The position numbers were made by a program, and so were the translations under genes. From positions 32,001-96,000 of IMG/VR virus record IMGVR_UViG_3300049215_000686: DNA of 64,000 nt; one strand, given 5' to 3'. Numbering within the stretch: the stretch's first letter is position 1; each line of letters opens with the position of its first letter. Below the pieces are notes generated by a model. The model saw only the letters and a program-made list of their open reading frames with translations. It was not told the DNA's origin and made no database searches. Source of the DNA: a virus. Below, in pieces: positions 36,248-39,800 of this stretch.

Positions 36248-36323
36248 TGGAGCCGCTGGACCGACTTGAACGGTCATCACAATCGTACCGGGATTGTGTT
36301 TTTACCAGTTAAACTACAGCGGC
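36248..36323 (-). tRNA. tRNA-Thr(GGT), C at position 33
   Basis: GCCGCTG/CAGCGGC-T-CCA; CAATC-CCGGTAC-GATTG. Confidence 0.85.
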
Positions 36324-36324
36324 A

Positions 36325-36410
36325 TGGAGCCGATAGGATGATTCGAACATCCGTGGGATCTCTCCGCTCGTTTACAAAACGAGTGCAATCGTCCTCTATG
36401 CGATATCGGC
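36325..36410 (-). tRNA. tRNA-Thr(TGT) with long variable arm
   Basis: GCCGATA/TATCGGC-T-CCA; CTCGT-TTTGTAA-ACGAG; 14-nt V region. Confidence 0.85.
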
Positions 36411-36427
36411 AATAACATCGGCGAATT

Positions 36428-36501
36428 TGGAGCCTCGTGGCTGAATCGAACAGCCGATTGCTGAATACGAATCAGCAGTTATACCGTTTAACTAACGAGG
36501 C
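36428..36501 (-). tRNA. tRNA-Thr(CGT)
   Basis: GCCTCGT/ACGAGGC-T-CCA; GCTGA-TTCGTAT-TCAGC. Confidence 0.9.
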
Positions 36502-36516
36502 AAAGATCAGCAAATT

Positions 36517-36591
36517 TGGTGCGCGAGCCGGGAATTGAACCCGAATCTCATGACTGGCAGTCACGCATCATAGCCTTTAGACCACTCACGC
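36517..36591 (-). tRNA. tRNA-Gly(GCC)
   Basis: CGTGA-CTGCCAG-TCATG; encoded CCA. Confidence 0.88.
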
Positions 36592-36593
36592 AT

Positions 36594-36668
36594 TGGACCG
36601 GGTAGCGGGAATCGAACCCGCGAATCGACGTTGGAAGCGTCGCGTGTTACCACTAGCACTACACCCGG
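36594..36668 (-). tRNA. tRNA-Gly(TCC)
   Basis: CGACG-CTTCCAA-CGTCG; U73, CCA; C1:G72. Confidence 0.9.
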
Positions 36669-36727
36669 AAAGAAAACTATCTTTTACAAAATCCCCCATT
36701 TTGGATAAAATAGTTTCCATTTTTAAA

Positions 36728-36808
36728 TGGCGGGGTACACGGAAGTCGAATCCGTCTGATCTCTCGCGTGACAGGCGAGTGGCCACTCCCATCGCAGCCC
36801 CGTACCCC
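36728..36808 (-). tRNA. tRNA-Asp(GTC)
   Basis: GGGGTAC/GTACCCC-G-CCA; CTCGC-CTGTCAC-GCGAG. Confidence 0.88.
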
Positions 36809-36848
36809 AAAAACAAAAACCCCAGGAACCTTTCGGCACCTGGGGTTT
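36809..36848 (-). terminator. attenuator terminator of the Asp/Gly/Thr tRNA operon
   Basis: AAACCCCAGG-TGCCGAAAGGTT-CCTGGGGTTT-TTGTTTTT, ending immediately before tRNA-Asp. Confidence 0.85.
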
Positions 36849-36874
36849 GGAAACTTTTTGTTATTAAGCAAAAG

Positions 36875-36952
36875 TTACACAATCACCCCAGGAAGATTTG
36901 TATCTCCGTCCGTACCGGTTCCAGTGATGGTGTTTGTAATGAATTTGCTCAT
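36875..36952 (-). CDS. leader peptide MSKFITNTITGTGTDGDTNLPGVIV (Thr/Gly/Asp-rich)
   Basis: Translated by hand; 6 Thr, 4 Gly, 2 Asp; 3' CCTGGGGT is complementary to the terminator 5' arm. Confidence 0.8.
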   Translation of the reverse strand: MSKFITNTITGTGTDGDTNLPGVIV

Positions 36953-36958
36953 ATGTTT

Positions 36959-36987
36959 ATAATACCAAAATGAGTTCAGACCCACAA
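36959..36987 (-). promoter_or_regulatory. sigma70-like promoter for leader 2
   Basis: TTGTGG-17 nt-TATTAT with TGn extension, 6 nt before the leader ATG. Confidence 0.6.
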
Positions 36988-37002
36988 CGGTATAGTACAG
37001 AT

Positions 37003-37194
37003 ATGCCTGACATTACCATGTGCGACAATGAAAAATGTGCGCTGCGGCAAGACTGTTACCGCTTTACGGCTCAGCCTTCTCGATTTCAGTCTTATGCCCA
37101 TTTTGAGCCCCTAGACGAAACATGTTGCGATCATTTCTGGTGCAACAGTTCAGAAAAATTGGCACCGGACACAGGAGTCGAACCCGTTTCTTGA
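37003..37194 (+). CDS. small Cys-rich conserved phage protein
   Basis: MPDITMC...C.LR..CYRFTA.....QSY......C..FW pattern; TATAGT 6 nt upstream. Confidence 0.6.
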   Translation: MPDITMCDNEKCALRQDCYRFTAQPSRFQSYAHFEPLDETCCDHFWCNSSEKLAPDTGVEPVS

Positions 37195-37230
37195 ATTTTG
37201 GAGGTTCAATTGCGCCCCGCGCTATCCGGT
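37160..37230 (-). tRNA. tRNA-Trp(CCA), short D loop
   Basis: ACCGGAT/GTCCGGT-G-CCA; loop CTCCAAA; D arm GCGC-GGG-GCGC. Confidence 0.75.
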
Positions 37231-37280
37231 GTCTTATCCCTTATAGGTAATAAACTGGCTTTATAACCTATGGGTAATAA

Positions 37281-37358
37281 TGGTGCCGCAGATCCGAATC
37301 GAACGGATATTATGTCTGATCTTCAGTCAGATGCCATGACCACGTAGGCGACTGCGGC
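37281..37358 (-). tRNA. tRNA-Phe(GAA)
   Basis: GCCGCAG/CTGCGGC-A-CCA; TCTGA-CTGAAGA-TCAGA. Confidence 0.9.
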
Positions 37359-37363
37359 AAATT

Positions 37364-37439
37364 TGGTGGACCGACCCGGACTTGAACCGGGAATCCCTCG
37401 GTGCAAGCGAGGAGTTTTACCAATTAACACTATCAGCCC
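37364..37439 (-). tRNA. tRNA-Ala(TGC)
   Basis: G3:U70; CCTCG-CTTGCAC-CGAGG. Confidence 0.92.
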
Positions 37440-37444
37440 AATTT

Positions 37445-37530
37445 TGGTCGGAGGAGCAGGACTCGAACCTGCGAAGCCCAAAGACGCGTGATTTACAGTC
37501 ACGTGGGTTAGCCGCTCCCACCATCCTCCG
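37445..37530 (-). tRNA. tRNA-Tyr(GTA) with C1:G72 and long V arm
   Basis: CGGAGGA/TCCTCCG-A-CCA; CGTGA-CTGTAAA-TCACG. Confidence 0.9.
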
Positions 37531-37735
37531 AAATTTTCACATCAACTCCGAGTTCAAACCATCCCTTCCAGTGTTCGCCATTCCAAGTTTTTCTCTCAGA
37601 CTGAAATAGCCGCTTATTATCCCGAGATCTTCCTCCAAAAATCAAGAACATGTATTCTCCGTGTTCATGAATCCGGTTTTTGGCTCGATGGCTAATTGGG
37701 ATGAGTTTGACTTTGATACCTTTGTCCATTTCCAT
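37508..37735 (-). CDS. hypothetical protein
   Basis: 75 aa; stop lies inside the tRNA-Tyr 5' end. Confidence 0.5.
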   Translation of the reverse strand: MEMDKGIKVKLIPISHRAKNRIHEHGEYMFLIFGGRSRDNKRLFQSERKTWNGEHWKGWFELGVDVKISEDGGSG

Positions 37736-37914
37736 AAATCACTTTTCCGAATTGAAATCGCCTGCATCCGTCCTTGATAAACTCGTAAAGTCCGGTTCCA
37801 ATAACTCACGATCAAGGAAATCAGTTCGTCACTTTCTCCAAGAACTTTTTGAATTTCGAAATCAATATCGAGACAACTCATGTGTCGATAAAGATGGCCA
37901 GATTTAATTTTCAT
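37642..37914 (-). CDS. hypothetical protein
   Basis: 90 aa; G.LYRH..CLD motif. Confidence 0.5.
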   Translation of the reverse strand: MKIKSGHLYRHMSCLDIDFEIQKVLGESDELISLIVSYWNRTLRVYQGRMQAISIRKSDLWKWTKVSKSNSSQLAIEPKTGFMNTENTCS

Positions 37915-38104
37915 TTTTTGGCTTCCATCGCGTCTTTCGATACCGTTTCCAAGATCTCCGAGACCTAGACCATCCTCGCTTTGAATTTTCTCCTCGATTC
38001 GGCGGACAAATAGGGCATCGAAGTTTTACCCGCGAAGCCTTCTTATAAACCGCGCTATTGGTCGTTCCCGTTAATTCGTTATGATTTCGTCTTTTATCAC
38101 CCAT
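37904..38104 (-). CDS. small basic K/R-rich protein with CPICPP
   Basis: GGAGG SD inside an upstream hairpin. Confidence 0.55.
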   Translation of the reverse strand: MGDKRRNHNELTGTTNSAVYKKASRVKLRCPICPPNRGENSKRGWSRSRRSWKRYRKTRWKPKNEN

Positions 38105-38161
38105 TGCATGAATCCTCCCTAGTGGAAGGTCATGCGTCCTCGAATGTGCTTCATAATTTTT

Positions 38162-38236
38162 TGGTGGGGCCGAAGAGAATCGAACTCTTTCCTGGCAGAT
38201 TAAAAGTCTGCGGTGCCGCCTTTACACCACGACCCC
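38162..38236 (-). tRNA. tRNA-Lys(TTT)
   Basis: GCAGA-CTTTTAA-TCTGC; CCA. Confidence 0.9.
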
Positions 38237-38240
38237 AATT

Positions 38241-38315
38241 TGGCGGGATCGCAGAGACTTGAACTCTGATACACGGATTAAGAGTCCGCTGTAATAGCCG
38301 TTATACGACGATCCC
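38241..38315 (-). tRNA. tRNA-Lys(CTT)
   Basis: GGGATCG/CGATCCC-G-CCA; GCGGA-CTCTTAA-TCCGT. Confidence 0.9.
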
Positions 38316-38368
38316 CAATTTTTCCTTTCGTTTTCGTTTGTGTCGTTTCATATCGTTCCTTTAAATTT

Positions 38369-38443
38369 TGGCTCCAGGGGCAGGTTACGCTCCTGCATAT
38401 GACGCGTTAACAGCGCGTTCCTTTACTAGTCAGGCACCCTGGA
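38369..38443 (-). tRNA. tRNA-Asn(GTT), atypical T loop
   Basis: TCCAGGG/CCCTGGA-G-CCA; ACGCG-CTGTTAA-CGCGT; T loop AGCGTAA. Confidence 0.82.
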
Positions 38444-38831
38444 ATATATCTTTTCTTAAGCCCCGAATCTTACACGAACTGAAAGTCCCTCTCGCCATCC
38501 CAACAATTTTACAAGCATCATGTTCTGAATGTCCTAATTCTATAAGTTCAAGAACCTTAATGAACTTTTCATCAGAAATAGTCCTGGCTTCGGACTGGGG
38601 AATATCTTTAAATCTCTCACTCAAGTCTTTCTTTGTTTTTTCTAAATGGCATGACCGACAAAGCACTTGACATTTTTTAAGTTCCGCGTCTCTTTTAGAT
38701 TGAGTCCAACTCCAAATACGTGAAGAAACTTTAGTTTTAGGATCAATATGATCTAATTCCAATTCTTGCCATGATCCACATTGAACACAAGGTCCCTTTG
38801 CATCAAACCATTCCTTACGTCTTCTCGCCAT
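38430..38831 (-). CDS. HNH endonuclease with C-terminal HTH-like region
   Basis: CVQCG....LELDHIDP...KCQVLCRSCH. Confidence 0.85.
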   Translation of the reverse strand: MARRRKEWFDAKGPCVQCGSWQELELDHIDPKTKVSSRIWSWTQSKRDAELKKCQVLCRSCHLEKTKKDLSERFKDIPQSEARTISDEKFIKVLELIELGHSEHDACKIVGMARGTFSSCKIRGLRKDIFQGA

Positions 38832-38906
38832 CCATTCCCTTTGATACTTTCAAAGGTACTCCCTTCTTTCTTCCCTGATCGGCATATATACAACATACCG
38901 ATCGCC

Positions 38907-38949
38907 AAAAAACGAAAACCCCGCTCAATCTTTTACGACTGGCGGGGTT
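38907..38949 (-). terminator. attenuator terminator of the Asn/Lys/Tyr/Ala/Phe/Trp tRNA operon
   Basis: AACCCCGC-CAGTC-GTAAAA-GATTG-A-GCGGGGTT-TTCGTTTTTT. Confidence 0.85.
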
Positions 38950-38976
38950 CTTAGAATCTTTTTTGTTTAAACAAAC

Positions 38977-39057
38977 TTACAAGAAAGATTTCACCCCGCG
39001 AGCCACCCAATTGGTCGCATTATTTTTAAAGTTATAGGCGAAATAATTCTTGTTCAT
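38977..39057 (-). CDS. leader peptide MNKNYFAYNFKNNATNWVARGVKSFL
   Basis: Translated by hand; TATAAT at 39067-39072; internal GCGGGGT is complementary to the terminator 5' arm. Confidence 0.8.
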   Translation of the reverse strand: MNKNYFAYNFKNNATNWVARGVKSFL

Positions 39058-39101
39058 ATATTTACTATTATACCTTTTTTTGCTAGATCGCAACTTTATT
39101 T

Positions 39102-39379: not shown

Positions 39380-39800
39380 TGGTGGAGGTGGGCGGAATTG
39401 AACCGCCGTCCAGAATCTTTCAGTCACCAAGTCATTCACACGCATATCTGGTTTTACGATCCAGCAATCAGGGTACGACCCGTTTTACCGAGTCTCCACC
39501 ACTTGGTTTATGTCCAAGAACAGGAGAGGCGTTTCCGCGTCCACCAGCCGCCAGTTTAACGTCTCGACGACCCGACGTTTTTGCCTTTCTTCTGTTTCTC
39601 GGCTCAGGCAGCCTCATTGTTTCCTAACCTAGGTCAGGCTACAAGGCGGAGATCAGCCTTACGGCTGAAATCCACGCGAACGACGTTGTCATTAGCATTT
39701 GTTGTTTGCATCTTTGTTTCCGGGGAATCCCCAAGGCAGCCTCATGCTCTGCCTGCGCGCACTCAATTTCCTCGTTATCCTGTCGAAACCTGTCACCCCC
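39380..39800 (-). ncRNA. ssrA: tmRNA; tag peptide ANDNVVRVDFSRKADLRLVA* (39634-39696)
   Basis: 5' GGGGGTGACAGGTTTCGACAG; 3' GACGGCGGTTCAATTCCGCCCACCTCCACCA with G3:U70; AND-type resume codon. Confidence 0.93.

Follow-up and report, generated by a model that had tools for sequence, protein, structure and literature searches.

What controls the transfer RNA (tRNA) genes that a large phage carries? The question is raised by a minus-strand array at positions 36248-39072 of a 64,000-nt stretch of viral DNA (hereafter the "window"; bases 32001-96000 of the 157,131-bp virus contig of IMG/VR record IMGVR_UViG_3300049215_000686, the phage of which is referred to as G000). In a preliminary description of this DNA, 13 tRNAs had been placed in two blocks, and this count was recovered: ARAGORN called 11 tRNAs in 36248-38315, and a tRNA-Asn from Rfam and a tRNA-Trp from relaxed ARAGORN settings brought the blocks to 7 and 6. 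In front of each block, the same description had noted a -10 box, an open reading frame (ORF) of ca. 25 codons, a G-rich segment complementary to a terminator arm, and the terminator itself; all of these elements were present on the minus strand. As argued below from sequence and predicted structure, each block is probably controlled by a ribosome-mediated (leader-peptide) attenuator.

The leader elements and the blocks that they precede are as follows, where "region 2" is the leader segment that can pair with the 5' arm of the terminator.

39072-39067, minus strand: putative -10 box of leader 1, TATAAT, read from the sequence; the ATG (39057) follows after 9 nt, with no Shine-Dalgarno sequence
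39057-38977, minus strand: leader ORF 1, 26 codons plus stop, MNKNYFAYNFKNNATNWVARGVKSFL
38999-38993, minus strand: region 2 of leader 1, GCGGGGT, codons 20-22; a copy from the terminator 3' arm that pairs with the 5' arm ACCCCGC as the candidate antiterminator
38950-38907, minus strand: predicted intrinsic terminator 1, hairpin and U-tract; -22.6 kcal/mol, z -5.5 versus dinucleotide shuffles
38831-38430, minus strand: HNH homing-endonuclease gene between terminator 1 and tRNA-Asn; PF01844, phrog_4234 at E 1e-28
38443-37160, minus strand: tRNA block 1, seven tRNAs in the order Asn, Lys, Lys, Tyr, Ala, Phe, Trp
36964-36959, minus strand: putative -10 box of leader 2, TATTAT; the ATG (36952) follows after 6 nt
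36952-36875, minus strand: leader ORF 2, 25 codons plus stop, MSKFITNTITGTGTDGDTNLPGVIV
36892-36885, minus strand: region 2 of leader 2, CCTGGGGT, codons 21-23; pairs with the terminator 5' arm ACCCCAGG (shuffle p 0.0034)
36849-36809, minus strand: predicted intrinsic terminator 2; -23.3 kcal/mol, z -5.1 versus dinucleotide shuffles; the U-tract ends 1 nt before tRNA-Asp
36808-36248, minus strand: tRNA block 2 (ARAGORN, Rfam), Asp gtc, Gly tcc, Gly gcc, Thr cgt, Thr tgt, Thr ggt

The earlier account of the individual elements stood apart from two corrections: the -10 box of leader 2 lies in an AT-rich box that is shared with the plus-strand promoter of the divergent gene at 36970-37194, and terminator 1 is split from tRNA-Asn by the HNH gene.

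A third unit was located outside the window, near the contig end (genome 156002-155869, minus strand). It is composed of TATAAT, 6 nt, ATG, the ORF MNTMRRSSVVMISRSMIIESTGVCA, and a terminator of -22.2 kcal/mol, followed by tRNAs Arg(tct), Met, Ile(gat), Val(tac), and Arg(acg), in that order. The last of these was predicted from the CGT and CGC codons of leader 3; with it, AGA, CGT, and CGC all have downstream cognates. It lies directly 3' of tRNA-Val (genome ca. 155106-155036, minus strand; L004 ca. 5107-5037) and was called in the mitochondrial mode of ARAGORN only. Its D arm is replaced by a loop, its acceptor, anticodon, and T stems are perfect, and it ends in CCA. Unit 3 is an independent check of the rule linking leader to cargo, and it conforms to that rule. 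For a small ORF inside block 3, a homologue search found no match.

Codon content of the leaders

Leaders were scored by counting the residues after Met1 that belong to the amino-acid set of each block. Leader 1 scored 18 of 25 for its own set (N, K, Y, A, F, W), compared to 2 and 3 for the sets of blocks 2 and 3. Leader 2 scored 12 of 24 for its own set (D, G, T), with 4 for block 1 and 5 for block 3; its codons 10-18 are nine T/G/D codons in a row. Leader 3 likewise scored 12 of 24 for its own set, with 2 and 3 for those of blocks 1 and 2. Binomial probabilities against the composition of the phage's proteins were 3e-6, 6e-4, and 1e-3 for leaders 1, 2, and 3, respectively. The six frames of the genome contain 676 ATG ORFs of 20-40 codons; among these, leaders 1 and 2 each scored highest of all for their own set, and leader 3 was in the top five. 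The other two frames of the leader DNA yielded 4/24 and 3/24 (leader 1), 3/23 and 3/23 (leader 2), and 5/23 and 6/23 (leader 3), and stop-free shuffles of the ORF bodies gave p < 5e-5, 5e-5, and 7.5e-3 for the three leaders. That the codons of each leader mirror its own block, as first proposed for the two units in the window, was thus upheld, and the match is a property of the reading frame that base composition does not explain.

In all, 11 units were found in five phages: the three of G000 and eight more in G001, L324, L325, and L327. G001, a 46-kb fragment, is the closest relative in IMG/VR (capsid protein 76% identical); its arrays were found by a whole-record scan, and its tRNAs Gly, Ala, Ser(gct), and Trp were called under relaxed settings only. 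The other three phages were obtained from a capsid-protein search of a large protein collection (capsids 88%, 84%, and 79% identical). Their units are:

G001 unit A: leader MKSVALNLNAYANYNWNNCAMR; tRNAs Asn, Tyr, Trp
G001 unit B: leader MNVFSPSVSVSPGSFGAGAAVYAGV; tRNAs Gly(tcc), Ala, Ser(tga), Ser(gct), Pro, Pro, Phe
G001 unit C: leader MTNAFSLRLALQLQLS; tRNAs Leu(taa), Leu(tag), Gln(ttg)
L324 unit 1: leader MGTFNFAFNNYKKAAANWQLAGRGLF; tRNAs Asn, Lys, Lys, Tyr, Ala, Phe, Trp
L324 unit 2: leader MNKFTTITTGITGTGGDDSCAGVIV; tRNAs Asp, Gly, Gly, and three Thr
L325 unit 1: leader MSTKKFANFNNYAAANWAVRGATLLML; tRNAs Asn (two), Lys, Lys, Tyr, Ala, Phe, Trp
L327 unit 1: leader MSTMNVNFAFNKKYAAANWAARGARNVFMI; tRNAs Asn, Ala, Lys, Lys, Tyr, a cat-type tRNA, Phe, Trp
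L327 unit 2: leader MSLFVGTTITTGTGTGSDDSCLGVIV; tRNAs Asp, Gly, Gly, and three Thr

The preliminary description had expected leader and cargo to co-vary among related phages, and they do. G001 carries other tRNAs, and its leaders are rich in N/Y/W (unit A), S/P/G/A/F (unit B), and L/Q (unit C), matching their own differing cargo; own-set residues numbered 9/21, 13-17/24, and 7/15, respectively. In the five units of L324, L325, and L327, own-set residues made up 13-21 of 24-29, versus 1-6 in the other frames (shuffle p <= 1.5e-4); over all 11 units, the other frames held 0-8 such residues. The shuffle p values, Fisher-combined over five distinct tRNA sets, gave 2e-11. When the six leaders of G000 and G001 were scored against their six blocks, the true assignment was the best of 720 permutations. 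The roster is also complete: in 11/11 units, the leader contains one or more cognate codons for each anticodon of its block. The chance of such coverage, estimated from random ORFs with phage codon usage, was 0.013, 0.042, and 0.014 for leaders 1, 2, and 3; over the six G000/G001 units it was 0.012-0.063 each, with a product of 2e-10.

Could the layout have arisen by coincidence, with untranslated chance ORFs in AT-rich DNA standing beside ordinary terminators and the tRNAs expressed constitutively via leak-through or from unrecognised promoters? AT-rich sequence does favor N/K/Y/F codons. However, the match is frame-specific, holds for GC-rich sets as well (T/G/D and S/P/G/A), and survives shuffles that preserve composition; leader composition in G001 shifts with the cargo, all 11 leaders cover all of their downstream anticodons, and the ATG is fixed at exactly 6 nt from the -10 box in 9/11 units. 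Coincidence is therefore strongly disfavored, and we consider it very improbable.

A similarly small probability is assigned to the notion that the short ORFs encode functional peptides (membrane or regulatory micro-proteins) whose composition only resembles the cargo. The orthologous unit-1 leaders retain their composition while the order of their residues is shuffled (e.g. MNKNYFAYNFKNNATNW..., MGTFNFAFNNYKKAAANW..., and MSTKKFANFNNYAAANW...), which fits selection on codon content, not on the peptide. The C-terminal ...GVIV of the unit-2 leaders is conserved in three phages, as might be expected of a working peptide, but the conserved ...GGG GTG... part is the RNA pairing segment. Moreover, a functional peptide would leave both the anticodon match and the terminators unexplained.

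Terminator and antiterminator pairing

All 11 units feature a putative -10 box, an ATG 6-9 nt later, and an ORF of 16-30 codons. In four of the five terminator-bearing units of G000 and G001 (G000 units 2 and 3, G001 units A and B), the first tRNA starts at most 3 nt from the U-tract. No separate promoter, which the preliminary description had named as a finding that would speak against attenuation, fits into this space, and these tRNAs could be transcribed only through the terminator. The arrangement TATAAT-N6-ATG also occurs before longer ORFs (36970, plus strand, 74 aa; 20842, minus strand, 274 aa; genome 156965, minus strand, 91 aa), and N6 is the commonest TATAAT-ATG spacing among N3-N12 in the genome (5 occurrences vs. 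0-3). This is a circumstantial hint that the leaders may be translated.

Terminators were predicted in 10/11 units; the five in G000 and G001 had folding energies of -17.7 to -23.3 kcal/mol and z values of -4.1 to -5.5. A strict scan of the 157 kb detected ca. five strong intrinsic terminators, two of which are those of leaders 2 and 3; that of leader 1, with its looser stem, was missed. Two of the strict-scan terminators do not head tRNA blocks and lie 3' of ordinary genes, preceded by neither a promoter nor a short ORF.

Region 2, at codons ca. 20-23, repeats the G-rich part of the 3' arm and complements the 5' arm in each of the terminator-bearing units. Besides the pairs listed above for units 1 and 2 of G000, the following were tabulated:

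L324 unit 1 and L327 unit 1: region 2 GCGGGGC, 5' arm GCCCCGC
L324 unit 2: region 2 CGGGGGT, 5' arm ACCCCCG
L327 unit 2: region 2 TTGGGGGT, 5' arm ACCCTCGA
G000 unit 3: region 2 CGGGGGT, 5' arm ACCCCCG
G001 unit A: region 2 CGCCATGAGGT, 5' arm ACCTCGTGGTG
G001 unit B: region 2 AGGGGTG, 5' arm CACCCCT

A three-way co-variation of region 2 with the 5' and 3' arms is thus evident, both from unit to unit and among orthologues. (The hairpin arms were tabulated unit by unit, since they did not fall into register in MAFFT alignments of the units.) Compared to ORF shuffles, the complementarity of region 2 and the 5' arm had p values of 0.0002-0.09 per unit (0.005 for leader 1). Their combination by Fisher's method gave 6e-11 over 10 units, or 0.0035 when the worst p of each of four families was used.

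Minimum-free-energy folds were calculated for nascent RNA ending where the 3' arm begins, and ca. 29 nt around the ribosomal A site were masked. With the A site at codon 13 or earlier, the 5' arm paired with region 2 in 10/10 terminator-bearing units. At codon 16, this pairing was kept in 8/10, the losses being in G000 unit 1 and L324 unit 2; at codons 18-20, region 2 was covered, the pairing was gone, and the 5' arm was free for the terminator. The switch between terminator and antiterminator that had been postulated for the two leaders in the window therefore appears in the folds of all 10 units. Cognate codons occupy leader codons 2-18, so stalling there would keep the antiterminator, and running through would remove it.

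Proposed regulation of the tRNA blocks

Under leader-peptide attenuation, the promoter would fire close to the ATG, giving a leaderless or nearly leaderless transcript, and a ribosome would translate the short ORF, which is rich in codons read by the downstream tRNAs. If decoding were fast, the ribosome at codons ca. 18-24 would cover region 2 while RNA polymerase made the terminator; the hairpin would form, and transcription would stop before the first tRNA. If any cognate tRNA were scarce, the ribosome would stall upstream and region 2 would be free to form the antiterminator with the terminator's 5' arm, such that the polymerase would read into the tRNA genes. RNase P would cut the leader off the read-through transcript. 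The new tRNAs would speed the decoding of the leader and turn the unit off again, closing a negative-feedback loop that is separate for each tRNA set. The trigger suggested in the preliminary description, tRNA cleavage by host defences such as PrrC, PARIS, or PtuAB, is compatible with the data but speculative; any slowdown in decoding would act in the same way as an anticodon nuclease, including a plain shortage of host tRNAs for phage codons. Decoding may be slowed by a mismatch between phage codon usage and host tRNAs, by the loss of host tRNAs as they decay after host shut-off, by a limited amino-acid supply, or by tRNA-cleaving defences.

Several findings weigh against this mechanism, and the first group of them concerns the switch itself. 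The antiterminator cores comprise 6-11 bp, versus 10-14 bp in the terminators; because the former are weaker, the switch must be kinetic, as in classical systems. A hairpin of the 1:2 type is present only in G001 unit B and L327 unit 2. The other units, when untranslated, fold as the antiterminator; the default would therefore be ON in most units, unlike trp. The stop codons of the unit-1 family lie 11-20 nt 3' of region 2; for three of the four orthologues (those of G000, L325, and L327), a ribosome waiting there leaves region 2 largely exposed. G001 unit C has a codon-matched leader and no terminator. Finally, a 7-bp complement was also found upstream of an ordinary terminator, the one that follows the capsid gene, with a p of 0.07; the complementarity in any single unit is therefore weak evidence.

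Some of these points (the matched leader of G001 unit C kept without an intrinsic terminator, the 1:2 hairpin missing from most units along with their untranslated antiterminator fold, and the uncovering of region 2 by a stop-codon ribosome) would suit a different arrangement, in which leader, terminator, and cargo are linked without stall-dependent antitermination, be it by a requirement for leader translation in read-through (opposite polarity), by Rho, by RNA processing or stability, or by an ORF that only times the expression of the array. We judge such an arrangement to be unlikely. Region 2 is always placed where a ribosome at codons 18-24 would cover it, and across 10 units its changes are matched in both terminator arms; the classical mechanism predicts this placement and co-variation, whereas the alternatives do not require them.

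The second group of contrary findings concerns the leaders and their distribution. No Shine-Dalgarno sequence precedes the leader ORFs, and the ATG is at a leaderless distance from the -10 box; leader translation would therefore rest on leaderless initiation. Some leader codons have no downstream tRNA, such as the five Ser codons of leader 3. Block 1 has the HNH gene after its terminator, and weak promoter-like sites are possible within the block, where they are no commoner than in shuffled sequence. In L326, Asn and Tyr tRNAs stand behind a terminator without a comparable leader. The terminator pattern, when sought in viral contigs, led to two more distant phages that share the terminator tail. 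In one of them, G004, a leader and a terminator are present, but the leader codons do not match the cargo significantly (p 0.23-0.28), and there is a TTGACA-type site after the terminator; the other, G005 (217 kb, 58 tRNAs), has a 45-codon ORF that is uninformative, nearly all amino acids being covered by its cargo. In Mx1 (capsid 30% identical), which has ca. 40 tRNAs, a simple scan revealed no terminator-headed blocks. The missing Shine-Dalgarno sequence, the layout in G004 and G005 without a significant codon match, and the many tRNAs of Mx1 without such a module are also what the coincidence considered above would produce. With all of these points taken together, attenuation by a translating ribosome is still regarded as the probable mode of control.

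A narrower proposal about its purpose is more doubtful. The attenuators could act as a counter-defence sensor: a host anticodon nuclease would cut a tRNA family, the ribosome would stall, and only the replacement array would be turned on. This is possible, but is put forward tentatively. Within such a scheme, the odd-shaped tRNAs (the D-armless Arg, the atypical Trp, and a Thr with a long variable arm) might be nuclease-resistant.

Leader-peptide attenuators that respond to more than one amino acid are well known, as in thrL (Thr and Ile) and ilvL of the ilvGMEDA operon (Leu, Val, and Ile); trpL, hisL, pheL, and leuL belong to the same class of regulators. The phage units resemble these enterobacterial attenuators in having a short ORF between promoter and genes that is enriched in several kinds of regulatory codon, and in having a terminator 5' arm that can pair upstream instead, with the position of the ribosome picking the pairing. 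They differ in their target, which would be tRNA genes (plus a few small hitch-hiking ORFs) rather than biosynthetic enzymes, and in their feedback, which would act directly on decoding and not via amino-acid supply. The phage leader lists up to seven or eight codon families, at least one per downstream anticodon; it has no Shine-Dalgarno sequence, with the ATG 6-9 nt from the -10 box (leaderless type); region 2 lies within the ORF instead of 3' of the stop codon; a 1:2 hairpin is missing from most units; and the element is phage-borne.

In the pheM leader of the E. coli pheST operon, Phe codons sense the charging of tRNA-Phe. Leader-peptide attenuation thus acts there, too, on a gene of the translation apparatus, although pheM is cellular, responds to one amino acid, and controls a synthetase instead of a tRNA. 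T-box riboswitches also choose between terminator and antiterminator according to the state of a specific tRNA and have translation-related targets; unlike the phage units, they dispense with the ribosome and bind the tRNA directly, at its acceptor end and by means of a specifier codon. Permissive Rfam scans of the window region and of unit 3 returned no match to the T-box (RF00230) or to any other leader, a Pseudomonas rnk leader at E 0.43 being at chance level only. Phage tRNA arrays are known to counter the loss of host tRNAs, for example in T5, whose tRNAs escape anticodon nucleases. The present tRNA sets would similarly replace or supplement host tRNAs during infection; what the phage units would add is a sensing and regulatory element upstream of the tRNAs, which is not known to feature in accounts of such arrays and did not come up in the literature searched.

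To our knowledge, the leader-peptide attenuators described to date control only amino-acid biosynthesis operons and pheST-type synthetase genes. No earlier report of attenuators on tRNA genes had been known to the author of the preliminary description, and a full-text literature search, the coverage of which excluded most subscription journals, found no description of leader-peptide control of tRNA genes. As far as could be found, the mechanism is known, and its novelty lies in targeting tRNA genes, in a leader designed as a complete roster, in a leaderless start, and in being phage-borne.

If the proposal is correct, a virus has wired attenuation logic to its tRNA genes and gives each tRNA set a sensor of its own, which would explain how large phages dose their tRNA cargo, usually an open question. 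The leaders would provide a direct read-out of the codons that the phage "expects" to be limiting in its host. Their composition would predict downstream anticodons and could thereby be used to find non-canonical tRNAs, as it pointed to the D-armless tRNA-Arg here. The units would also offer synthetic biology a compact, modular, multi-codon sensor of decoding speed, and it would become directly testable whether a phage makes "tRNAs on demand" in the course of infection, also when defences target tRNAs.

Neighbouring genes and the wider genome

The individual tRNAs and small ORFs of block 1, and the gene that diverges from leader 2, are:

38443-38372, minus strand: tRNA-Asn gtt; Rfam only, beyond the 11 called by ARAGORN
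38315-38241, minus strand: tRNA-Lys ctt
38236-38162, minus strand: tRNA-Lys ttt
38104-37904, 37914-37642, and 37735-37508, minus strand: three small ORFs inside block 1
37530-37445, minus strand: tRNA-Tyr gta
37439-37364, minus strand: tRNA-Ala tgc
37358-37281, minus strand: tRNA-Phe gaa
ca. 37230-37160, minus strand: weak tRNA-Trp cca with an atypical D arm and a very short D loop; relaxed ARAGORN only
36970-37194, plus strand: small gene divergent from leader 2 (phrog_20586), outside the switch

The tRNA-Trp was not called by standard ARAGORN or by Rfam, and it overlaps the 3' end of the plus-strand gene at 36970-37194; a similar weak Trp tRNA ends the orthologous block in G001, L324, L325, and L327. 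In block 2, tRNA-Thr(tgt) (36325-36410, minus strand; ARAGORN) is 86 nt in length and has a long variable arm, which is unusual for a Thr tRNA. The stop codon of the HNH gene falls inside the 5' end of tRNA-Asn, and the 75-aa ORF at 37735-37508 (minus strand) terminates inside tRNA-Tyr. The HNH insertion is missing from this place in relatives: tRNA-Asn adjoins, or nearly adjoins, the terminator in G001, L325, and L327.

Just upstream of leader 1, ARAGORN identified a transfer-messenger RNA (tmRNA) at 39380-39800 (minus strand) with the tag ANDNVVRVDFSRKADLRLVA. A tmRNA near the capsid gene was also noted in the relatives L001, L002, L324, and L325. Of the three IMG/VR capsid relatives L001-L003, two carry a tmRNA that is not flanked by a tRNA array. 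In relatives, a gene with an RF-1 domain (PF00472) is situated between the tmRNA and leader 1, and suppressor-like tRNAs occur as well (cta twice in L324 and once in G001; tca in L325). The coordinates of these RF-1-domain genes and suppressor-like tRNAs are:

L324: 14124-14501 and 19111-19269
L325: 14390-14764 and 14312-14388
L015: 2725-2803

The RF-1-domain gene and the suppressor-like tRNAs suggest a tool kit for translation rescue or the reading of stop codons; if the attenuators did serve counter-defence, the tmRNA, the RF-1-domain gene, and the suppressor tRNAs would be parts of the same translation-rescue kit.

The genes in the window include those for a tail sheath, a portal, a large terminase, a major capsid protein, a DnaB-type helicase, and an SbcC-like nuclease, and the phage is therefore of the large, myovirus type. 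Its capsid protein is ca. 30% identical to those of SPO1-like Bacillus phages and of Myxococcus phage Mx1. A nucleotide search of cultured phages with the tRNA region returned scattered tRNA matches only, with no resemblance at the DNA level. The promoter pattern AATGTGTATAATA-N5-ATG had 96 matches in viral contigs, of which only G001 itself was relevant; the terminator pattern had at least 119 matches in metagenome contigs, and none of those then listed was followed by tRNAs. Homologues of the 328-aa gene downstream of the arrays were found in six contigs, all of them without tRNAs; the arrays are therefore lineage-specific cargo.

An isolated tRNA-Met(cat) is present at 16207-16137 (minus strand), with a TATATT box 5-6 nt upstream and neither leader nor terminator; some phage tRNAs are therefore outside such control. 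Outside the window, a repeat of ca. 95 nt is common to genome 157040-157131 (the contig end) and 230-320, and the sequences diverge after it.

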